Source of the DNA: a virus
Direction: 5' to 3' (one strand)
DNA length: 64,000 bases
Virus record (IMG/VR): IMGVR_UViG_3300002026_000001
Location: 32,001-96,000 of that record
In this document: positions 31,561 through 45,055 of the stretch, piece after piece
How positions within the stretch are numbered: the first letter of the stretch is position 1
Layout: every line of letters starts with the position of its first letter
Program-made: the position numbers and the translations under genes
Notes under the pieces: generated by a model
Told to the model about the DNA's origin: nothing
Database searches by the model: none
The model's input: the letters and a program-made list of their open reading frames with translations, nothing else

Positions 31561-32541
31561 TCAGAATGAACGAGCGTCGTAAACCGTTGGGCCGATTGCG
31601 CTAACAAACGCAGGTGTGTTGACACTTGAGCATTCAAACCCGATCCCATCTTCACACCAGCGGTGTGCAAGAACACCGTTCGGCATTTGGTATGTCGGCT
31701 TGCCCATTTGCGTGTGCGAACACGGACTAAGGTTGATACCACGACCGACGCGAGTCCCGCAGACAGAGCACGAGTAACTCTTGTAATAGAAGCCGACGCT
31801 GTAAGCGTTGTTCTCATTGCGCAGAATCGACTCTGCAAGTGCACTGTCTTTGGTGCGGTCATACGCAAGCAGCAACACGATCTTGTAAAACTTGTTGTTG
31901 AACGGGACCGGACGCAAGAACGAATCAAGGATCACACCTTTCGCTTGCGTGATGTCTTTGTTCTGATGTTCGACGTGTGTCGGCTTTCCCTTAAACGTCT
32001 TGTACATCTGCATGCCGAACTCTGGATCGAAGCGCAACATCTGTTTGAGCGTCAGACCATCACCGTTTGTGTTTGGCAACCCACTGAAGATTGCGGGGAT
32101 CGGCACCAACACATAGTCGCGAATGTCACGCGACAGACAATAGTGTTCCGCAGCGTAAGGCAACCAGTAGTTGCAATCAGACACGCGCTCGGTGAACCCT
32201 GTTCCAGACACGGTTTCAGGAACAATGATTTCCTTCGTGCCTTTCTTAAGCTGCTCACCTGCAAACGGCAGCAACGAACTCAGTCCAAAGCTGTTTGACG
32301 CAAACCGTTCAGGAATGTCAATCAACGGAGCGCCGTCAGCAGCGCACAAACTTGTTTCTTGACTGGCGGTAAATGAAGGTGTGTCGCTTGACACAAACTT
32401 GTAGCCACGCGAAATTGGAATCAACGCACCAACCGGTGCGCTATTACGTGACACAAGAAACGTGTTGTTGTGACTTGGACGCAGTGAATAGCCTTGCGAG
32501 GTCGCCCACTGTTGTGCGTTGTCAATGATAATCATGGTCAT
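31561..32541 (-). CDS. Prohead (capsid maturation) protease
   Basis: PN.NGD, HVEHQNKDITQAKGVILD, YSVG...CSVCG, FECSSVNTPAF herpes/HK97-type protease motifs; upstream of scaffold and MCP. Confidence 0.8.
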   Translation of the reverse strand: MTMIIIDNAQQWATSQGYSLRPSHNNTFLVSRNSAPVGALIPISRGYKFVSSDTPSFTASQETSLCAADGAPLIDIPERFASNSFGLSSLLPFAGEQLKKGTKEIIVPETVSGTGFTERVSDCNYWLPYAAEHYCLSRDIRDYVLVPIPAIFSGLPNTNGDGLTLKQMLRFDPEFGMQMYKTFKGKPTHVEHQNKDITQAKGVILDSFLRPVPFNNKFYKIVLLLAYDRTKDSALAESILRNENNAYSVGFYYKSYSCSVCGTRVGRGINLSPCSHTQMGKPTYQMPNGVLAHRWCEDGIGFECSSVNTPAFVSAIGPTVYDARSF

Positions 32542-32546
32542 TCCTA

Positions 32547-34535
32547 TTAGTTGTGCCGTTTCAAAGCTTTCTTTGCGCGTGCTGCCACCTTAGCAACCGG
32601 ATCGTTTAGAAGCTTCAACAGAATATACTTCGGTGTATCAAAACCTTCGGCAAGAGCAAAGCGTACATCAGGTTCAGTATCGAGAGCCAACTGATCGCGG
32701 GACGCGTCGTCAATATCAGAAACTCCGGCCATGTAAGCTCGAATCTTCGGATCATCACAAGCAACCAAGTCGTCTAGATAATTCCTGTCCAACTCCGCGT
32801 CCATTCCAAGTAGGTATTTGACAACTTTAAAGTTTCGACTATCTTTAAAGTGATTGAAAAGTTGTTCTTGGCGATCTTCAGCAACGTTGTACGGGAGGTC
32901 TCCAATAAGATCAGGACGTAGGTCGAGAGCGTATAGAGTGAACTCAAATGGGAAGTTGTCGGCAATCTCTAGCAAATCTGCTACGTGCATTCCTTTATCC
33001 AACGTGCACAGCAACTCAAACACTTCCTTTGAAAGTTCAGGTTCGTCTTCAATAAAGGCAGTGACCAGATCGGGACTAGCGGCCTCAAGTTTACTGAGAA
33101 CAAAGTCTTGAGGAATAGCTTTGTGGTCTAGTATCAAACACCTAACATGCGTGTCGCGCACATTTTCGTACATTGACATAAGAAGGCTTACCGGCGCTGC
33201 TGGATTATTTGCAACCCTCCTGCTGAAATCTTTGGAGAATGCGTACTTCTTCAAAACCTTGACCGTGCAACGCTCGTCGCGTAGCAGAGTCATCAAGAAC
33301 TGGCGACCTTCTGACGTCTTCAACTGTGAGTCTTTGAGCGTGTCGAGTGCGCCTATAAGTTTAAGCATTGTCTTTTCTGACAGCCTGTCGCTTGCAACGA
33401 TTGCGCTCAATGCCCGTAGAGACAGTTGCTTACTGCTCAAGCAAAGGTCGGCCATAGTGTCGAGAGTTGTCGACGACACGTTCTTGTTGAGACATATGAT
33501 TGGATAATGGTTTTGTTTCACATCCGGGAGTATTTTTGCAATGAACTTGTCAGACAAACTCCGGTGTCTGAGAATATCGACTTCTAGGTAAGCACTGTCT
33601 ATGTGGTAGCCGTACAACTTCTCTAGGATTTCCGATGGTGCATTTCCGTTGTCGGTCAGTGCTCTTGCCACAGCCTCACTTGGTTTTTCAGAAACGAAGT
33701 ATTGCAAGATTTCTATGTCAGGTGTTGATGATGCAAGCGCCGCTTTGTTGCGCGCAGACAGACCTTCGACCGGATCACCTTGTTTAAGGTGGAAGATGGA
33801 AGTCTCCTGATCGTCGTTGTACAAGTTTTCACGATGCTTGTACACTCCGGTTGGAGACGACTTGTTCATTTCAGCACAGAACTTTACAACTGCACCATGG
33901 AAATGCTCGGATGCAGTTCCGTACACGGGGCCGGGAACAAATACCGAGTAGCCACCGGTTTTCACAAACGGCCGCAATGCTATGCGTGCCATTGGGCGGT
34001 TGATGTTTTTGTCGTCATTCTTAACAAGATAGGCGACAAGGGTTCCGTATTTGACGTCCTTCTTCAAGTAATCTGCGTTGGACCCTTTTTCGACATTCAT
34101 GCACGACGTCCAACCTCGGTCAAAGGACATACCTAGGATGTCGTACGGGTGCCGAGAAATCACAACCCACGCTGCTGCACCTTTTGAGGCTGCACGGGAG
34201 GAGTCATTATCAAACTGTTTCTTCAACGCCGGGACTTCGGACAACACCTTGCCGATCTTGACACTTCGGCGACCATCTGGAAGCTTCGCAGTTCCAGCAC
34301 GGTAGTCGTCAACAGTCATACCTTTGGAATTCAGAAACTCGATTATCTCGCCCGGAGCTTCGACAGCCTTTTTGATGGAGCCGTCGATTGGAATGTAGAT
34401 TCGGTAGACCGGCTTTTTACTACCGGCCTTACCGAACTTTGCAAACACGTCAGCGTACCTGAGACGGTTGAACGTACCCATGTAGGGCTTAACAGTCGAA
34501 ACAGGCATTGCCGACAAAGATACGTTGATAATCAT
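32547..34535 (-). CDS. Hypothetical protein with conserved N-terminal domain and C-terminal HEAT/LRV-like repeats; S-x-S leader (MIINVSLSA)
   Basis: ISRHPYDILGMSFDRGWTSCM domain; repeats such as VARALTDNGNAPSEILEKL and VRFALAEGFDTPKYILLKL. Confidence 0.65.
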   Translation of the reverse strand: MIINVSLSAMPVSTVKPYMGTFNRLRYADVFAKFGKAGSKKPVYRIYIPIDGSIKKAVEAPGEIIEFLNSKGMTVDDYRAGTAKLPDGRRSVKIGKVLSEVPALKKQFDNDSSRAASKGAAAWVVISRHPYDILGMSFDRGWTSCMNVEKGSNADYLKKDVKYGTLVAYLVKNDDKNINRPMARIALRPFVKTGGYSVFVPGPVYGTASEHFHGAVVKFCAEMNKSSPTGVYKHRENLYNDDQETSIFHLKQGDPVEGLSARNKAALASSTPDIEILQYFVSEKPSEAVARALTDNGNAPSEILEKLYGYHIDSAYLEVDILRHRSLSDKFIAKILPDVKQNHYPIICLNKNVSSTTLDTMADLCLSSKQLSLRALSAIVASDRLSEKTMLKLIGALDTLKDSQLKTSEGRQFLMTLLRDERCTVKVLKKYAFSKDFSRRVANNPAAPVSLLMSMYENVRDTHVRCLILDHKAIPQDFVLSKLEAASPDLVTAFIEDEPELSKEVFELLCTLDKGMHVADLLEIADNFPFEFTLYALDLRPDLIGDLPYNVAEDRQEQLFNHFKDSRNFKVVKYLLGMDAELDRNYLDDLVACDDPKIRAYMAGVSDIDDASRDQLALDTEPDVRFALAEGFDTPKYILLKLLNDPVAKVAARAKKALKRHN

Positions 34536-34536
34536 T

Positions 34537-36147
34537 TCAATCGTCTTTCAAAGGTAACCAGCTTGGACGGCGCAGACCAAGGTCGGTGAAGAACTTGGTG
34601 ATCACGTCCGGGTCAATGTAGCTGTTGATGCTAGTGGTTGAAACCGTCTTTTCTTTCTCGCCGGTTCCGCTGCGGTGATGTAGCATCGCTCCTATTTCAA
34701 GACACTGCTCTTTGGCCCACTTCTCTGCGGCAGATTGTGACGGTGGGTTTGTCTTCTTGAATGGAGATGTTGCAAACTTCTTCAACGCCAACTTCGTACC
34801 GGCAGCGTGACGAATCTTGTGCGCGGTCATCTTCGGGATTCCGGTGATCGCTTTCAGATACTTGTTGACTGGATCAGGGCGAAGCAGCGCACCCTTGATG
34901 GTGAACACGTACTTGTCTTTCGTCTTGTTCTTCATGTAGCCACGAATCAGACGAATGACTTTGCGATTGGTCGGAGTCTTGTTGCTCAAGAAGTGATGTT
35001 GCATCGTTCCCTTCTTGCCGGGGTATTCAAAGTCAAGACCGTCGGTAGTTGCATGCACCTGACCAACCTTGACAGTTGTCATCCCGTATGTTTGCTGACC
35101 GTCGTTCTTGTTCTTCTCGCCACCGATACGTGCTTGTGATTGGAACATCGCTTCAACGACAACAGCGTGCATCTGGATTCGAGCATCCAAGCTGTCAAGG
35201 TCTTTCAACCAAGTCTCGTGGTGCATGTCGACATCTTCCATGAACTCGCCGACTACTTCAAACTTGCCCTTGGTGTTTGCCTTGAGGAAGTTTACGGTGC
35301 GCAATGGGTTTGGCTTGTTGTCAACTTGCCAGCAATAGTAAGTGTTGTCCGTCTTCGGATCGTACGCCGGGTTCATCTTAATGATGCCGACCGCGCCACC
35401 CTTCAGCAACTTGCCTTCGGTCGTGTAAAACTTCCCTTGCTCATCAACGCGACCAACAAAACCAGTCGGCAGGTAATTGCAACCCATCGCCTTCAGGTAA
35501 TTGCGTGCAGTTTCAACATCGACTGTCTGGTGACCGCTGATACGCACAAACTTCTGCAAGCACTTCTTGTAGTTTGCGGTAAACACCATGCGCAGCTTCG
35601 AGTACTGCTCGATCAGCTTCGCGTCAGTCTTGCGGAACTCCAGAATCTCCTTCAGCGACAACACCGGATCGTCTTTGCGGTCAGTAAGTGCAAGAACGAT
35701 CTTTGCCATCTTCTGCGAGGTTGCAAGGTCACCAACTTCCTTACTGTCACGGTCCAAGAACAACGCTGATAGAGCCGGAGCACCGAGGATCACAGAGTTT
35801 TTGTTGATACGGTTCCAGCAAGGCTCACTGTCTTTGCGGAAGAACGTAGTGATGTCACGAAGCATCGCCAACTCTTCTTTCGAGATTGACGTGTCCTTGA
35901 CGAATTCGGGAAGCTTTGCCTTCATTGCCAACCCAAGTTCCTCACCTTCATCCTCGGTGAATTCGTAGGTTGCTTTGAACCGCTTTGAAATGGTGTTGAA
36001 GTCGCGCACCAACCCAAACTTCTTCAGGAAAGGTTGCGCGGCTTCTTCCCATCTTGGGTAGACTGGTTTCGCCTTTGACACGTCTTTCGACGCTAGGCTG
36101 ATGGTCATCAACGTGATGCACTTCAAAAAACTTATGGTTGCACTCAT
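34537..36147 (-). CDS. DNA topoisomerase IB (pox/bacterial type) with N-terminal extension
   Basis: Catalytic pentad pattern: QARIG (R), YPGKKG (K), HKIRH (R), LHH (H), NSYIDP (Y). Confidence 0.85.
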   Translation of the reverse strand: MSATISFLKCITLMTISLASKDVSKAKPVYPRWEEAAQPFLKKFGLVRDFNTISKRFKATYEFTEDEGEELGLAMKAKLPEFVKDTSISKEELAMLRDITTFFRKDSEPCWNRINKNSVILGAPALSALFLDRDSKEVGDLATSQKMAKIVLALTDRKDDPVLSLKEILEFRKTDAKLIEQYSKLRMVFTANYKKCLQKFVRISGHQTVDVETARNYLKAMGCNYLPTGFVGRVDEQGKFYTTEGKLLKGGAVGIIKMNPAYDPKTDNTYYCWQVDNKPNPLRTVNFLKANTKGKFEVVGEFMEDVDMHHETWLKDLDSLDARIQMHAVVVEAMFQSQARIGGEKNKNDGQQTYGMTTVKVGQVHATTDGLDFEYPGKKGTMQHHFLSNKTPTNRKVIRLIRGYMKNKTKDKYVFTIKGALLRPDPVNKYLKAITGIPKMTAHKIRHAAGTKLALKKFATSPFKKTNPPSQSAAEKWAKEQCLEIGAMLHHRSGTGEKEKTVSTTSINSYIDPDVITKFFTDLGLRRPSWLPLKDD

Positions 36148-36148
36148 T

Positions 36149-38371
36149 TTACGCCTCAGTGGTTTTGTCTGTACTTGTCACGAAATATACGCATGCAATC
36201 CCAACCAGTGAGTTTGCGGAATTCTTCACATGAACAGAATAGTTGAGAATTTTCTTACCGTTAACTTGAATGACGTGCGGCTTTGTATCTGTGGACGTGT
36301 ATGCTGAGATTCGCTGGTCGGATATTGACATCCCTAGCAACTCCTCTTTTGACAGTCCGATCAATTGCTCAAATGCTTCGTTGCAACTGTTGACCAGCAA
36401 AGAACTGTCGAAGAAACAAACTGCGTGTCGGTCAAGAGAACCTGTCAGAGCCGAGTGCAGTGTCGATGCGCGACGAAGTTCAGTCACGTCAACGAAGCTG
36501 CCGATAAACCCTTCAGGCTTTCCTTCTGCGTTGCACAGAACCGAATGGTACACGACCATTTCACGGGCCTCTCGGTGCTTGTAGCTCCACAATGATACAT
36601 CAAATGACCGAACATTGCAATAGCCAGATTCGAGAAGTTGCTGTTCTTCTTGGTGCATGGTGGACAGCACGCCGATGAAATGCGACTCCTGCTCAAACAA
36701 CGTCTCGGACAGCAATGAGCGTGCGCCAGCCCTAACCAGATCATGCACATTCAAAACAGTCTTGCCGATTAGTTCTTCCTTTGTCGTCAGGAACAAATCA
36801 GCGAATGCTTGATTGCACATGACGTACTTGGAATCTTTGTCCTTGTAATAAATCGGAATCGGTGTCGCGTCAAAGATGCGTTGGTGAAACCGCTCTGCTG
36901 TCTTCAGGTTTGTAACGTCGGTCAGTAGGCAGAGCACGCCGTCAAATTCGCCAGAGACGTTTCGCAACGCTGACCTGTAGGCCACAGCATCACGAATCTC
37001 ACCAGTGATAGCATTTGGAATGCGCAACTCGTACGTCTGTGAATCAACCAAACCAGTTGTCAATTCAGTGTCGCGCAAGTTGTGTTCAGCCAACCCACTT
37101 GCAAACTGGCTTTGATATTCGGTAAGCTTGCACGCTGCGTTGTCTGCAATCATGTTCAACACATCAACTCTGGTCCGGCCAATGATCTGGTCGCGTGAAA
37201 GACCGATCAGTGTTTCGTACGCTAGGTTGCAACCGCAATACCGCAGGTCACGGTAAAGATAGTACACAGGGTTCTTGACGGACTCCATGAGCGTTGTCTG
37301 AAACCTCTGCACAGACAGTAGCTCTGTTAGGTCGACCATCGTCCCAACGGTTCCAGAAAATGCACCGGCCTTGTCACGCACTGCTGCCGAGTAAAGCGCG
37401 ATGTTGTGCGGAGTCTTGGTCCGTGATCCAAACACGATCAGGTTTTGCGTATTCACATCAGCCCGTTCAGCGTCATGCAGAAGCTCGTCAACACTGTCAA
37501 GGACTGACGCCGTGCTTGGTGGGAATATGTCAGAAGACGTTTTCCCCAAGATCATGTCAGGCCGCATTTCCATCAACTTGCAAAATGCTGCGTTGGCACC
37601 CAAGAACTTCAGGTCAGCGCCCTTATAGAACACCGGGTTTGGCATTGCCGACAACAAACCGAGTTGCAACTGCGTAAGGTTGTCGATCACTGCGTTCGCT
37701 GCAACCTGCTCCGACATATCCTTCAAGACCGCGATGAACACCAGATTGTCAAAGTTGTCCACGTCGATGTTTAGCACGTTGACGTAGGTGTTTATGTCAA
37801 GCACCTTGCCGGTCTTGTGGCAGCAGGTGAGTGAATGCACCTTGTTCAGTTCAGTGTTCTTCGACTGCACGTACAAGCGGTAGAAGTTTTTGCGCGTGAT
37901 AAATGGGGTTTGCTCAGTGCAAGTCTCGCGCATGTAGCGAACAAAGTTCTTTCCCTCGTCAAACAGAGACGCGGCGTTGATCTTGCGCCCAAGTAGAAAG
38001 CTAGACGAAGGCTTGCCGACCAACTCGTCATTCGTAAACCCCAAAAGACGTTCTGCGCTACTGTTGATTTCCAACACGTTGCCGTGGCAATCCAGACTGA
38101 TAAGAGCGTCCATCATGCTGTCCAAGATGGTAGCGTTTGTGCGTCTGGCCTTTTCCAACTCCGACGACAACGTCGCTGCCAACTTCACAGCCTCGTTCCG
38201 TGTTTCATGCACTTCGCGCTCAAGCGAAGAGTGTGTCTGTTCGAGACGCAAGAGGTCTTCCTTGCGTAAAATTGGCCGGGAAAAAGACATAACGTCAGCA
38301 AGCGTGCGAATCGTCTGCAAGTTTGTTGTATGCGCTCGACCGGGGATCAGGTTTTTCATAAACTTGAACAT
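36149..38371 (-). CDS. Coiled coil plus five tandem PAS domains, no output domain
   Basis: Five repeats of ...P.PV.Y.D...Y..cN.AF..L.G....L.GK.. closed by D.T linkers; the ORF ends directly after the fifth PAS. Confidence 0.85.
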   Translation of the reverse strand: MFKFMKNLIPGRAHTTNLQTIRTLADVMSFSRPILRKEDLLRLEQTHSSLEREVHETRNEAVKLAATLSSELEKARRTNATILDSMMDALISLDCHGNVLEINSSAERLLGFTNDELVGKPSSSFLLGRKINAASLFDEGKNFVRYMRETCTEQTPFITRKNFYRLYVQSKNTELNKVHSLTCCHKTGKVLDINTYVNVLNIDVDNFDNLVFIAVLKDMSEQVAANAVIDNLTQLQLGLLSAMPNPVFYKGADLKFLGANAAFCKLMEMRPDMILGKTSSDIFPPSTASVLDSVDELLHDAERADVNTQNLIVFGSRTKTPHNIALYSAAVRDKAGAFSGTVGTMVDLTELLSVQRFQTTLMESVKNPVYYLYRDLRYCGCNLAYETLIGLSRDQIIGRTRVDVLNMIADNAACKLTEYQSQFASGLAEHNLRDTELTTGLVDSQTYELRIPNAITGEIRDAVAYRSALRNVSGEFDGVLCLLTDVTNLKTAERFHQRIFDATPIPIYYKDKDSKYVMCNQAFADLFLTTKEELIGKTVLNVHDLVRAGARSLLSETLFEQESHFIGVLSTMHQEEQQLLESGYCNVRSFDVSLWSYKHREAREMVVYHSVLCNAEGKPEGFIGSFVDVTELRRASTLHSALTGSLDRHAVCFFDSSLLVNSCNEAFEQLIGLSKEELLGMSISDQRISAYTSTDTKPHVIQVNGKKILNYSVHVKNSANSLVGIACVYFVTSTDKTTEA

Positions 38372-38372
38372 G

Positions 38373-38696
38373 TCAACCACCACGTCTAGTCATTACTGAG
38401 ATAGTGGTAAGCACCGCTTTGACTTCACTGATTGCTTCACGAATGCTTATCTGGCTTTGGTGATACTTCTCAATGATCGAGAGAAGCATTTCACGTTCTT
38501 CACCATTCTTGTCGCTGATTAGCGTTTGCAGCTTGTCAACGACTTCTCTATACTGCTTAACGTCCTCGCGGTGTTCTTTGTTCGTGTTGTACTTGTTCCA
38601 AGCTAAATAGCCGATGATTAGCATCAGTATTGCGACAAGACCATTTCCGGTCCCGCCCAACACCGCGTCTACGAGTTTTCCTAGCGTTTCTGTCAT
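38373..38696 (-). CDS. Single-pass membrane plus coiled-coil protein (holin-like or PAS partner)
   Basis: TM GLVAILMLIIGYLAW followed by heptad-like helices; stop 1 nt before the PAS ATG. Confidence 0.6.
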   Translation of the reverse strand: MTETLGKLVDAVLGGTGNGLVAILMLIIGYLAWNKYNTNKEHREDVKQYREVVDKLQTLISDKNGEEREMLLSIIEKYHQSQISIREAISEVKAVLTTISVMTRRGG

Positions 38697-38722
38697 GTCG
38701 CTCTCCAATTGCCTACCAATTC

Positions 38723-38729
38723 AAATTAG
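38723..38729 (-). promoter_or_regulatory. Putative phage promoter element CTAATTT
   Basis: Intergenic, just downstream of a terminator and upstream of the membrane-PAS-TopoIB genes. Confidence 0.5.
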
Positions 38730-38761
38730 AAAGCTTGAAAAAATCACAACATATAAACGAC

Positions 38762-38786
38762 AAAAAGCCCACCGAAGTGAGCGTTT
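38762..38786 (-). terminator. Rho-independent terminator with UUCG tetraloop
   Basis: GCTCAC-TTCG-GTGGGC-TTTTT on the minus strand. Confidence 0.8.
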
Positions 38787-38796
38787 GTCAGAGTCA

Positions 38797-39021
38797 TTAT
38801 TTTCCAGCGTTGGGCATCTTCTTCGCGACATTGTCGACAATGATTGCCATTTCTTCTTTGAACTTGTCGACGTCCTTACCGACAAACGCTTCTGCAACTG
38901 CGTTGCCAGTGTCGCCGCCGAGACCTTTCATCATTGCTGACAGGAAGATGCTGCGGTGGCCTTTCGGCTTTTTGCCTTTTGATTCTGAGACCGTGTTGCC
39001 AAATGCGATAAGAGTTTTCAT
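38797..39021 (-). CDS. Small hypothetical protein
   Basis: 74 aa, ATGA overlap with the upstream ORF. Confidence 0.6.
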   Translation of the reverse strand: MKTLIAFGNTVSESKGKKPKGHRSIFLSAMMKGLGGDTGNAVAEAFVGKDVDKFKEEMAIIVDNVAKKMPNAGK

Positions 39022-42642: not shown

Positions 42643-43230
42643 TTATCGGGTTAAAACAATCTTGGCAAGAGCGGTTACAACCATAGGGTCGTACGTGGTT
42701 CCGCTTTTGATAATGTCAAGGGTTTCGGCTCTTGAAAATGCACGCTTGTAGGTTCTCGCTTGTGTCATTGCGTCAAAACCGTCTGCAACCGCAATAATAC
42801 GTGCCAGAAGATTTATGTCGCTCCCACTGACATTGTCTGGATAGCCTGACCCGTCGAAGTGTTCGTGAGTTTGAACGATTACGTCAGCAACTTCCTCAGA
42901 ACCGTCAATGCCGGACGCTTTAATGATCCTAGAGCCAGCATTTGAGTGTGTCTTCATCACTTCAAACTCAAGACTCGTCAACTCAAAATGACTGAGAAGA
43001 ATATTGTCAGGAATTCCAATCTTTCCAATATCGTGCATCAGGGATGCCACTTCAAGAACTTGCAGGGCTTCGTCTGGAAGGAAGCCCAAGCAGTCAGCAA
43101 GCAGCATAGAAAGTTTGTGGACTCGAATACAGTGCTCGGCGGTACGAGCGTCCTTTTCGAGAATGGCTTGCAACAGTGATGATTTTAAAGGGTTCATTCT
43201 TGGTATACTCTTCAAACCTGATTGTCCCAC
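42643..43230 (-). CDS. Stand-alone HD-GYP cyclic-dinucleotide phosphodiesterase
   Basis: H..RV, LMHDIGKIG, THEHFDGSGYP, IAVADGFDAM...R.YK; the start may be at 43197 (MNPLK). Confidence 0.9.
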   Translation of the reverse strand: MGQSGLKSIPRMNPLKSSLLQAILEKDARTAEHCIRVHKLSMLLADCLGFLPDEALQVLEVASLMHDIGKIGIPDNILLSHFELTSLEFEVMKTHSNAGSRIIKASGIDGSEEVADVIVQTHEHFDGSGYPDNVSGSDINLLARIIAVADGFDAMTQARTYKRAFSRAETLDIIKSGTTYDPMVVTALAKIVLTR

Positions 43231-43257
43231 ATCAGGTGTTGTGCAACAGAGACTAGT

Positions 43258-43581
43258 CTACCCTTTGGGATTTTTTTCTTGAAACTCTTTGTATAGTTTT
43301 TTGACCTTGTCCTTATTGCGTGGAACGTCGGAGTCAAGCTTCAACATTAGACGCACGGCTTCGAGCTTCGACTCAACTTCATCGAGCCACTCGTTATGTT
43401 CTGCCACACCTTCTGAATCTTGGTGGTTGGAGTCAATCCATTGCTTGAAACGCTTTGCTTCTGCAACGTACTGCGGTATGAAATCCATCAGCACTATTAT
43501 TGGGAATGGCTGAGTGTAATCTGGAAGTGGGTGCTTACCAACTTCGTATTTAAAACCAGAGATAGAGATTTTCATGGTCAT
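43258..43581 (-). CDS. Hypothetical protein; leader MKISISG
   Basis: 107 aa, coupled ORF. Confidence 0.6.
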   Translation of the reverse strand: MTMKISISGFKYEVGKHPLPDYTQPFPIIVLMDFIPQYVAEAKRFKQWIDSNHQDSEGVAEHNEWLDEVESKLEAVRLMLKLDSDVPRNKDKVKKLYKEFQEKNPKG

Positions 43582-44684
43582 GACCGCTTATCCGAGATTT
43601 CCAGTTTAGCGTAGTAGGACAGTATCGTTCCAGAGAAGACACCGCCCCAAGGCATTCCAACATTTGCAACGACAGCCCTACCAGTTTGAAACTTGCCAAC
43701 TGGTAAGTTCTTTTGATCTACAATCATCTTGGCGAGTTTTTGAGCAGCACGTTGAAACTTTGGAAAGAAGTCCCAGCCCTTCAGGTCAAGAGTTGCTGGC
43801 TTATAGATTGCGGCCGTTACAGAAGTTGTTGTGACCTGCAAGACACAAACGACTTCACCTGTTTGACTACGCGCAGTGAATTTCGCGTAAGCAACACCGT
43901 TGTCAAACCCGTGTGAAATGTCAGTTTCTTTAGCGAGAGTCTTCGCGCATGCTAGTGCATACGGCTCGAAGTCATGACCTAGCACATCAAACAAACCGGT
44001 CAGCTTTACCTGACCTTTTTCAGGCTTCAGCAACGAAGAGCGTTTCTTCAACTCTCTGACAGAGTCTTCTTTGATTATGTAGACTACACCGTCGCGGATC
44101 ACGCACGGGTACCCTTTGAATGTCGTCAGCTTGAACAGCTTCCCCTTGCTCAACGTCAACACGCGTTCTCCAGAACGCATCTTAACCGGACGGTCAAAAT
44201 TGTACATGAAGTGCTGAACCTTCAGGTCAGCAGATGACGACATGAACTGGTCACTAGAAACCGATTCAGCAAAGTCCATTGCCATCTGACGTACGTCTTC
44301 GTCGGTCTCCGCTGTCCATTCACCGCGCTCTGGCGTGTATGCGCAATCACCTTCCTTTACAGTGTCCCCAATCTGGAACCCGTAGATTGCGCGGTGTGAC
44401 CAACCGTACCACTTTCCATCTTTCTCAGAAAACCCAATACTGCAAACGGTGTGGTCAGGTTTCGCCACCACCGGTGCAATGCCGTACTTGTCGCAATAGA
44501 TTTTCGCAGCCCTCACATCACCAATGTACTGACCTTGAGGGTTGTAAGCCGCTTCGATGGTGACAGGGTTTTCAGGATCAAACTTCATGCTCCAGACTTC
44601 GGTGTTGACAACGTACAAGCCTTTGTCCACGCTATCCAGAACAACCTTTTCAATATCGCTACAAAGACTTATAAACATGGTCAA
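43578..44684 (-). CDS. Hypothetical protein; leader MFISLCS
   Basis: 368 aa; GFSEKDGKWYGWSHRAIYGF domain. Confidence 0.65.
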   Translation of the reverse strand: MTMFISLCSDIEKVVLDSVDKGLYVVNTEVWSMKFDPENPVTIEAAYNPQGQYIGDVRAAKIYCDKYGIAPVVAKPDHTVCSIGFSEKDGKWYGWSHRAIYGFQIGDTVKEGDCAYTPERGEWTAETDEDVRQMAMDFAESVSSDQFMSSSADLKVQHFMYNFDRPVKMRSGERVLTLSKGKLFKLTTFKGYPCVIRDGVVYIIKEDSVRELKKRSSLLKPEKGQVKLTGLFDVLGHDFEPYALACAKTLAKETDISHGFDNGVAYAKFTARSQTGEVVCVLQVTTTSVTAAIYKPATLDLKGWDFFPKFQRAAQKLAKMIVDQKNLPVGKFQTGRAVVANVGMPWGGVFSGTILSYYAKLEISDKRS

Positions 44685-45055
44685 CTCCGTTTGAGGACTT
44701 TCAACTTCGCAACGTCTAGTGCAATGTACATGTCGCCGACCGCACCGTAATCACGAAAGCCTTTGATCTTTATCAGGTCACAGCGTCGGCGACGTGCGTC
44801 GGCAATAACCTTTTCAATGTCTTCCAGTTCGTGTTCTTCTGGAATCTTTTTCCCATCGACTTCGTACATGTTGTCGTAGTCGACCCGAACAGTGTAGAGA
44901 ATCTTGCCAAAGCGTTGCGCACGAACTTTGGAAGGCGTCAGAAAAACTCCACCTTCGGCAGACGAGTCCAATGAAAACGTGTTGAACTCTTTTCCGCTGC
45001 CGTGATACAAGATGATGAATTTCGGTTTAGCTGACAGCGAGACGAGTACTAACAT
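44681..45055 (-). CDS. ADP-ribosyltransferase-like protein (ART-PolyVal-type); leader MLVLVSLSA
   Basis: LYHGS..F..F....GVFLT...A..FG..LY.V.V....D.I.I...D.Y.A.D pattern. Confidence 0.65.
   Translation of the reverse strand: MLVLVSLSAKPKFIILYHGSGKEFNTFSLDSSAEGGVFLTPSKVRAQRFGKILYTVRVDYDNMYEVDGKKIPEEHELEDIEKVIADARRRRCDLIKIKGFRDYGAVGDMYIALDVAKLKVLKRS

Follow-up and report, generated by a model that had tools for sequence, protein, structure and literature searches.

The PAS fold, an antiparallel sheet of five strands with helices at its flanks, also occurs in proteins that stand alone and lack an output domain, such as photoactive yellow protein, the short LOV proteins (e.g., PpSB1-LOV), Caulobacter MopJ and animal PER. 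To our knowledge, very few of the sensors that phages encode are understood, with arbitrium and the VqmA of phage VP882 among the known cases, and we are likewise aware of little that explains how giant phages with a lytic life cycle sense what state the host is in. Here we describe a pair of phage genes, the second of which encodes a 740-aa protein that resembles the stand-alone PAS proteins in having no catalytic or DNA-binding domain and, we infer, in signaling by protein-protein contact. Those from bacteria have a single PAS domain, whereas this protein has five, together with an N-terminal coiled coil that is specific to its family.

The pair lies in a 64,000-nucleotide stretch of DNA (the window) taken from a 132.8-kb IMG/VR virus contig with a completeness estimate of 50%, and the phage origin of this record is evident from its genes for tail sheath, baseplate, portal, terminase and prohead protease. 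The terminator, the CTAATTT motif, the gene for a 107-aa protein with a transmembrane (TM) segment and the 740-aa PAS gene reported in the original prediction were all found on the minus strand where it had placed them (Table 1), and the single nucleotide it had given between the stop codon of the small gene and the start of the PAS gene was confirmed in the sequence. From its sequence, the hairpin closes the upstream transcription unit. The CTAATTT motif occurs eight times in the window, with six of the eight copies within ~45 nt upstream of start codons, although its total count in the window shows no excess relative to chance. Within the 3′ end of the small gene there is a Shine-Dalgarno-like GGTGG 5 bases upstream of the PAS ATG. 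Genes for a ligase, unknown proteins and topoisomerase IB adjoin the pair, and the last of these begins at 36147, 1 base past the stop codon of the PAS gene.

Table 1. Positions in the window of the two genes, their signals and the domains of the 740-aa protein.
Feature	Position	Strand	Details
Intrinsic-terminator-like hairpin	38760..38782	-	GCTCAC TTCG GTGGGC + T tract; stem-loop 38782-38767, then TTTTTGT
CTAATTT motif	38723..38729	-	Candidate phage promoter element, 27 nt 5′ of the small-gene ATG
Small membrane-protein gene	38373..38696	-	107 aa
Coupling junction	38372..38381	-	GGTGG 38381-38377, stop TGA 38375-38373, 1 base, ATG 38371
PAS-only gene	36149..38371	-	740 aa
Long N-terminal helix / coiled coil	38117..38263	-	Residues 37-85; AlphaFold2 model
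PAS1	37718..38107	-	Residues 89-218, with helical insertion; Pfam + AlphaFold2
PAS2	37331..37633	-	Residues 247-347; Pfam + AlphaFold2
PAS3	36917..37267	-	Residues 369-485; Pfam + AlphaFold2
PAS4	36488..36853	-	Residues 507-628; Pfam + AlphaFold2
PAS5	36179..36424	-	Residues 650-731; AlphaFold2; last domain of the chain

The 740-aa protein was matched by the Pfam families PAS_4 (143.5 bits, cut-off 23.1), PAS (122.2), PAS_9 (82) and PAS_8 (73.8), each with a score well beyond its cut-off, and no non-PAS family in Pfam reached its cut-off. Its AlphaFold2 model (mean pLDDT 80.6) has a long N-terminal helix followed by five PAS folds, as many as had been predicted, and these folds and the Pfam models together place the protein in the PAS superfamily. 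The sole sequence match to a solved structure was the BvgS PAS domain (6zj8, E 1e-7), in PAS4, while the best fold matches of the model were DosP, PpsR, NifL and FixL. There is no hydrophobic segment (Kyte-Doolittle maximum 1.2), and on these sequence features the protein is judged to be cytoplasmic and PAS-only.

What, then, could such a protein do with the cues it may sense? Pfam identified neither HisKA nor HATPase_c of histidine kinases, none of GGDEF, EAL and HD_5 of the c-di-GMP enzymes and no HTH family of the PAS transcription factors in the 740-aa chain or in 25 family members, and the model ends at PAS5. HATPase_c has a single match elsewhere in the phage, which is far from the pair and is probably a topoisomerase II/gyrase B-type gene. 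LOV sensors have a GxNCRFLQ motif with an adduct-forming cysteine, and neither NCRF nor G.NCR is present in the 740-aa protein. At the sequence level there is also no sign of a heme-PAS, as the five orthologues compared share no conserved His and CxxCH is absent, a test that leaves room for a non-His ligand.

The lack of an output domain noted in the original prediction is real and family-wide. The 25 members found, with Logan and ENA contigs among their sources, are 302-974 aa long, with roughly 2-7 PAS domains judged by length, and in every one the Pfam matches are to PAS families only; a fused output domain, which the original prediction had considered might turn up in homologues, was found in none of them. 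A truncation or assembly artefact was rejected because the gene junctions are tight and all 25 homologues are without an output domain. The 740-aa protein carries the signature of the family, which is the motif RPxLRxEDL immediately N-terminal of the coiled coil, then the coiled coil and after it PAS domains only (alignments A1 and A2). The end of the chain is variable, in that PAS5 is missing from the 622-631-aa members and followed by two further PAS domains in the 962-974-aa members. Among the closer members the N-terminal coiled coil has 40-58% identity vs. 21-44% for the PAS domains.

Outside the family, the nearest relatives are cellular multi-PAS histidine kinases with HisKA and HATPase_c. 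No orthologue was found in 50,697 deposited phage genomes, even at E = 1; searches across 185,579 prokaryote species, each represented by a single genome, and of JGI metagenome contigs gave only generic cellular PAS proteins or no match at all. Scans of viral contigs with the single 740-aa protein and with P0057 gave no match, and alignment-based scans gave only a 286-kb relative and two distant PAS-only genes. The Atlas look-alikes of the N-terminal helix had no name or were helical proteins of a generic kind. On these searches the family is virus-only. The 740-aa protein is probably a sensor that acts by binding other proteins.

Do those other proteins belong to the host? PAS domains often pair as dimers, which is how PER and other proteins of the output-less kind act. 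The phage protein might be a decoy that pairs in mixed dimers with PAS domains of sensor kinases or diguanylate cyclases of the host and thereby blocks or hijacks their signaling. The small membrane protein would then either bring the PAS protein to membrane-bound targets or be unrelated. That the PAS repeats are most like those of cellular multi-PAS hybrid histidine kinases, and that a membrane tether would put the protein beside membrane-bound kinases, speak for such a role. However, the best matches from cells reach just 20-33% identity and are spread over many phyla, so that no specific host target is mimicked, while the wide variation in PAS number within the family is a poor fit to mimicry of one kinase. 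We consider a decoy unlikely.

The gene context of the pair was read in two genomes of the family. In the complete 286-kb relative the small gene and the PAS gene occur in the same order with a stop-to-ATG gap of 2 nt, and are preceded by a comparable hairpin and by CTAATTT 37 nt 5′ of the small gene; conservation of the pair, on which the original prediction had placed weight, thus extends to its coupling. The flanking genes differ between the two phages. A 74-aa gene is upstream of the pair here, whereas in the relative its look-alike (by eye) is an ORF on the downstream side of the PAS gene, and an additional 130-aa membrane ORF is present upstream of the pair. The gene orders indicate that the small gene and the PAS gene move as one block, and protein-level selection acts on both. 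Contigs of 4938 bp and 2808 bp are common to the PAS and small-protein clusters, and these matching lengths suggest that two more contigs carry both genes.

These observations bear on whether the two genes are functionally independent, with promoter and translational coupling common to both only through tight genome packing. Nearly all genes of the block that holds the pair are spaced by 0-10 nt, and therefore tight junctions are the rule there, and the two proteins have evolved at very different rates, both of which are compatible with independence. Set against this, the pair, the terminator and the motif have stayed together while the flanking genes rearranged, and the 4938-bp and 2808-bp contigs point to further co-occurrence, making independence, in our opinion, improbable. 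An analogous arrangement exists in two other phage contigs, in which a 429/437-aa PAS-only protein gene overlaps a downstream gene for a coiled-coil protein with a C-terminal membrane helix, the latter protein having no homology to the 107-aa protein.

The 107-aa protein has a short N-terminus, one hydrophobic stretch at about residues 11-33 (Kyte-Doolittle 19-residue maximum 1.9), with the TM helix put at about residues 15-35, and then three predicted helices; its AlphaFold2 model is poor (pLDDT 53.5). The 14 sequences of its family are 104-108 aa long and at least 53% identical, and residues 63-100 are nearly invariant across them. Between this phage and the 286-kb relative the protein is 63% identical overall and about 92% in this tail (35 of 38 residues), where the codons have 25 synonymous differences. 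A mild positive-inside bias in the sequence suggests that the tail is cytoplasmic and that the helix is an inner-membrane anchor. Our search for longer forms, with a relative of the small protein and PAS domains in one chain, found none, which is weak evidence.

The original prediction had also raised a holin/antiholin-like pair. With one membrane helix and a charged helical domain in ~100 aa, the small protein is similar to BhlA/XhlA of Bacillus phages, Rz-type i-spanins and the T4 holin/antiholin, although conservation of its soluble tail goes far beyond what holins usually show. Neither PF10960 nor PF10779 (BhlA/XhlA) matched at E <= 1 at the locus of four phage records, and the genes next to the pair include no endolysin, holin or o-spanin. 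An Rz-type i-spanin has an N-terminal membrane helix and a periplasmic coiled coil, with the o-spanin lipoprotein gene embedded or adjacent, and the ORF list contains no lipoprotein-like partner. The look-alike signals were weak, comprising PHROG Rz-like matches (E 0.008 and 0.063) and an Atlas feature score of 0.91 to a BhlA-containing cluster; the Atlas look-alikes were unnamed or generic helical proteins.

Two further possibilities involve a group of anti-defence-type genes 4-7 kb from the pair, which includes a Tad6-like gene (E 1.6e-43), a stand-alone 195-aa HD-GYP (42643-43230) and a sub-threshold ART-PolyVal-like gene. PAS domains bind small molecules, and many of them in one chain amount to several binding sites, so that the five pockets might soak up a metabolite, or else an immune or stress signal of the host, as known phage sponges do. 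That would fit these neighbors, but the pair is its own transcription unit, with the ligase gene and the terminator between it and the anti-defence-like cluster. In addition, the sequence has no ligand or cofactor signature, it is the coiled coil and not the PAS domains that is best conserved, and a sponge has no need of a membrane partner. A sponge is accordingly quite unlikely. As for the HD-GYP, the original prediction had proposed that the PAS protein may act on it in trans. PAS-HD-GYP fusions do exist in cells (P0017, with five PAS domains and HD_5), the HD-GYP in the window has no sensor domain, and the 286-kb relative encodes a membrane-anchored GGDEF-EAL protein without a cytoplasmic sensor. 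Nevertheless, that complete relative keeps the pair and has no HD_5/HD-GYP gene, which means that the HD-GYP is not a conserved partner and leaves the proposal unsupported. The enzyme is also 4 kb away in another transcription unit, where it adjoins the Tad6-like and ART-PolyVal-like genes, and stand-alone jumbo-phage HD-GYPs are predicted to degrade immune cyclic nucleotides, i.e., to act in counter-nucleotide defence (PMC7824862). A role as its sensor is very unlikely.

The explanation we favor, tentatively and at somewhat less than an even chance, is that the pair is a split sensor: the PAS protein would regulate, from the cytoplasm, a membrane protein that serves as anchor or effector. The 107-aa protein would be held in the inner membrane by its single N-terminal helix with the conserved helical tail in the cytoplasm, and the five PAS domains would sense one or more intracellular cues, such as a ligand or the redox or metabolic state. 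Since the 740-aa protein has no catalytic or DNA-binding part, its signal would have to pass by protein contact, for which the likeliest surface may be the conserved N-terminal coiled coil and the likeliest partner the neighboring membrane protein. If we assume this partner, then it would provide the "missing output domain" in trans. Candidate membrane events under such control are lysis timing, exclusion of other phages and a host envelope process. However, conservation of the small protein far exceeds that of the PAS coiled coil, so that it may mainly contact something more conserved, for instance a host protein or another copy of itself. A complex prediction for PAS residues 1-235 with the small protein, run without controls, scored 0.00 and counts neither for nor against binding. 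The more specific proposal of a virus-only two-protein sensor, in which a multi-PAS reader of host state gates a small membrane effector via coiled-coil contact, we regard as somewhat unlikely; if true, a giant lytic phage could tune a membrane event, for example the moment of lysis or the exclusion of competitors, to host physiology.

This locus defines a family, confined to viruses, of multi-PAS proteins that lack an output domain and have a conserved membrane partner. Should the two proteins form a sensor-effector unit, they would represent a new wiring of PAS input to output and a usable two-part sensor scaffold; taken with analogous pairs of non-homologous proteins in other phage lineages, they would stand for a phage signaling module of a general and so far undescribed class. 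On PAS proteins of jumbo phages, or alongside holins, our literature search turned up nothing relevant. The closest comparisons by sequence and fold are with the helix-linked PAS chains of hybrid histidine kinases (P0058, P0067 and P0069), DosP, PpsR and NifL, yet these cellular sensors end in HisKA/HATPase_c, GGDEF-EAL or HTH domains and the phage family members (25 of 25) do not. Among phage proteins, the likeness of the 740-aa protein to the 536-aa "multi-sensor histidine kinase" of Agrobacterium jumbo phage Atu_ph07 is at the level of the PAS fold (13% identity), as is that to the small "PAS domain" proteins of uncultured Caudovirales in virus structure libraries. VqmA of vibriophage VP882 (PMC8284805) is also a phage-encoded PAS sensor that reads a chemical cue, but it is a transcription factor with a single PAS and a DNA-binding domain, while the 740-aa protein has five PAS domains and nothing that binds DNA. 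Finally, unlike the stand-alone PAS proteins, with which it has only the PAS fold in common, the 740-aa protein is encoded by a virus and paired with a membrane protein.

The absence of an output domain from the PAS protein encoded at this locus is real. Several Pfam PAS families match the protein far above their cut-offs, no other Pfam family matches it above cut-off, and no hydrophobic segment was found within its 740 residues. In an AlphaFold2 model, computed from 25 aligned family sequences and with a mean pLDDT of 80.6, the first 33 residues are disordered and are followed by a long helix (residues 37-85) and five PAS folds. A topoisomerase IB gene begins one base past the PAS stop codon and, therefore, there is no space for a lost domain. 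The original prediction of a five-PAS sensor without an output domain was borne out by this tight 3′ junction and by the family, as only PAS families were matched in 25 of 25 aligned members. Its description of the locus (terminator, CTAATTT motif, small gene, 1-nt junction and five PAS domains) also proved right in every point. The sequence GGTGG is present five bases upstream of the PAS-gene ATG.

Features of the window, of its relative (L002, pair region; L089, GGDEF-EAL region) and of two other phage contigs with PAS-only genes (L003, L004)
Feature	Position	Strand	Evidence or remark
Terminator-like hairpin and T tract	38782-38767	-	sequence
CTAATTT motif	38729-38723	-	sequence
Small gene, 107 aa	38696-38373	-	single hydrophobic helix near N-terminus, helical tail
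PAS gene, 740 aa	38371-36149	-	begins one base past small gene's TGA
Topoisomerase IB-like gene and 662-aa gene of unassigned function	31561-36147	-	Topoisom_I, E 5e-17; phrog_23460 (topoisomerase)
74-aa basic protein	38797-39021	-	upstream of pair
Its look-alike ORF in relative	L002:11847-12125		downstream of PAS gene; match by eye
130-aa ORF in relative	L002:9166-9558		directly upstream of small gene
CTAATTT before small-gene ortholog in relative	L002:9625-9631
CTAATTT upstream of starts	60360, 50362, 38729, 30644, 12145	-
CTAATTT upstream of start	16177	+
Anti-defense-type gene cluster	42643-45055	-
HD-GYP, stand-alone, 195 aa	within 42643-45055	-	HD_5, E 1e-30
368-aa protein, N-terminal Tad6 (Thoeris inhibitor) domain	within 42643-45055	-	E 1.6e-43
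124-aa ORF, ART-PolyVal	within 42643-45055	-	sub-threshold, 27.5 bits vs cut-off 31.2
Portal gene, 1106 aa	46793-50113	-	endonuclease-like insert, ~residues 509-678 (phrog_4645)
495-aa GGDEF-EAL protein in relative	L089:664-2151	-	N-terminal membrane helices, then GGDEF and EAL; no cytoplasmic sensor domain
429-aa PAS-only and 162-aa coiled-coil proteins	L003:9917-11649
437-aa PAS-only and 149-aa coiled-coil proteins	L004:9116-10875

When 1.84 billion representative proteins were searched exhaustively and without a profile, about two dozen clusters aligned with the PAS protein from its N-terminus. These range from 302 to 974 aa, or roughly two to seven PAS domains (counts of four, five and seven were read directly from the family alignment, the others estimated by length), and it is their C-terminal end that varies. 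Closer members are most alike in the N-terminal coiled coil (40-58% identity, versus 21-44% for the PAS domains). The next-best matches were giant cellular multi-PAS hybrid histidine kinases with HisKA, HATPase_c and receiver domains, setting the family apart from its cellular relatives, from which, judging by sequence, it is distinguished by its lack of an output domain and by an N-terminal RPxLRxEDL motif plus coiled coil. The protein might be a decoy of host PAS kinases, but no close cellular homolog resembling such a target was found in JGI metagenome contigs or prokaryote genomes. It might likewise be a ligand sponge, but it has no cofactor signature: a LOV motif, CxxCH and a conserved His are all absent.

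The PAS gene and the small gene upstream of it form a genuine pair that is conserved and confined to viruses. Searches of 50,697 deposited phage genomes, 185,579 prokaryote species (one genome each) and JGI metagenome contigs turned up no ortholog of either protein. In a complete IMG/VR phage (IMGVR_UViG_3300045974_000132; 286,393 bp with direct terminal repeats), the NAD ligase gene is followed by a 108-aa small-gene ortholog, then, after a 2-nt gap, by a 631-aa four-PAS ortholog and finally by topoisomerase IB. The two small proteins are 63% identical overall; at residues 63-100, which are nearly invariant across 14 sequences (104-108 aa), 35 of 38 residues are identical despite synonymous differences in 25 of those codons, indicating strong selection on the small protein itself. 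Both the PAS and small-protein clusters include contigs of 4938 bp and 2808 bp, suggesting that two further contigs may carry both genes. In Pseudomonas phage PaBG, topoisomerase I lies in a comparable setting but neither gene is there, and we therefore regard the pair as accessory, a block belonging to a single uncultured clade.

The flanks of the pair differ between the two phages. A conserved 74-aa basic protein upstream of the pair in the window has a look-alike, matched by eye, on the other side in the relative, a side change indicating a local rearrangement in which the pair was kept whole. The relative also has a 130-aa ORF whose product combines one strong N-terminal membrane helix with a glutamine-rich coiled coil; the window lacks an equivalent there. 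Despite these differing flanks, the small gene has a hairpin and CTAATTT ahead of it in both phages. In the window CTAATTT is no more frequent than expected by chance (8 observed versus 5.5 expected); six of the eight occurrences are within ~45 nt upstream of a start codon (distances read from flanks), preceding genes of mixed functions (NUDIX, HNH endonuclease, the gene before portal, the small membrane gene). The motif is likely a phage promoter element.

How might a sensor without an output function? A protein of sensor domains alone would have to signal by contact or sequestration, and its partner may be the neighboring small membrane protein, because the coiled coil is best conserved, both phages keep the two genes coupled and the two genes move together. 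The small protein would then be an anchor or effector, regulated from the cytoplasm by the PAS chain, and we infer that the pair may function as sensor plus membrane partner. Counting against simple pairing, conservation is much higher in the small-protein tail than in the PAS coiled coil; the main partner of the small protein may thus be the small protein itself or a conserved host protein. In two other phage contigs the end of a PAS-only gene overlaps the gene downstream of it, which encodes a coiled-coil protein whose membrane helix is C-terminal. These coiled-coil proteins are not homologous to the small protein, but this independent analog supports a broader association of PAS-only proteins with small membrane coiled-coil proteins in phages. 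Lysis timing is one candidate target, and stays a candidate rather than a finding because no lysis gene adjoins the pair in the window or the relative and XhlA and BhlA profiles gave no match.

The proposal that the PAS protein acts in trans on the HD-GYP at 42643 was not borne out and is weakened: the relative has no HD_5 gene, although it does have a membrane-anchored GGDEF-EAL protein, and the window HD-GYP is set among anti-defense-like genes, adjoining Tad6-like and sub-threshold ART-PolyVal-like proteins. Stand-alone HD-GYPs of this kind are predicted to be counter-nucleotide defense enzymes by a study that compared jumbo phages (PMC7824862). The window HD-GYP is more likely a degrader of cyclic-nucleotide immune signals than a c-di-GMP regulator.

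The source of the window is a tailed giant phage. Its IMG/VR virus contig (132.8 kb, of which the window covers bases 32001-96000; estimated completeness 50%) encodes tail sheath, baseplate, portal, large terminase, DnaB-type helicase and prohead protease, and the terminase shares 40-45% identity with its counterparts in Phage NCTB, PaBG and Erwinia, Dickeya and Yersinia jumbo phages. The portal gene has an endonuclease-like insert, consistent with a putative intein or homing-endonuclease insertion. The topoisomerase IB-like and 662-aa genes separate the PAS gene from the prohead protease gene, which places them in the head-morphogenesis block rather than among the replication genes.

In its mode of working the PAS protein would most resemble PYP, short LOV proteins, MopJ and PER, stand-alone PAS proteins whose signaling is by contact. 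In appearance it comes closest to the input half of cellular multi-PAS kinases and of DosP, PpsR and NifL. It lacks the defining sequence features of sensor histidine kinases, c-di-GMP enzymes, PAS-HTH regulators such as VqmA of phage VP882, LOV sensors or His-ligated heme sensors, and its likeness to other viral proteins with PAS folds, such as one of jumbo phage Atu_ph07, is at the fold level only. We place the pair among the output-less PAS signaling proteins.
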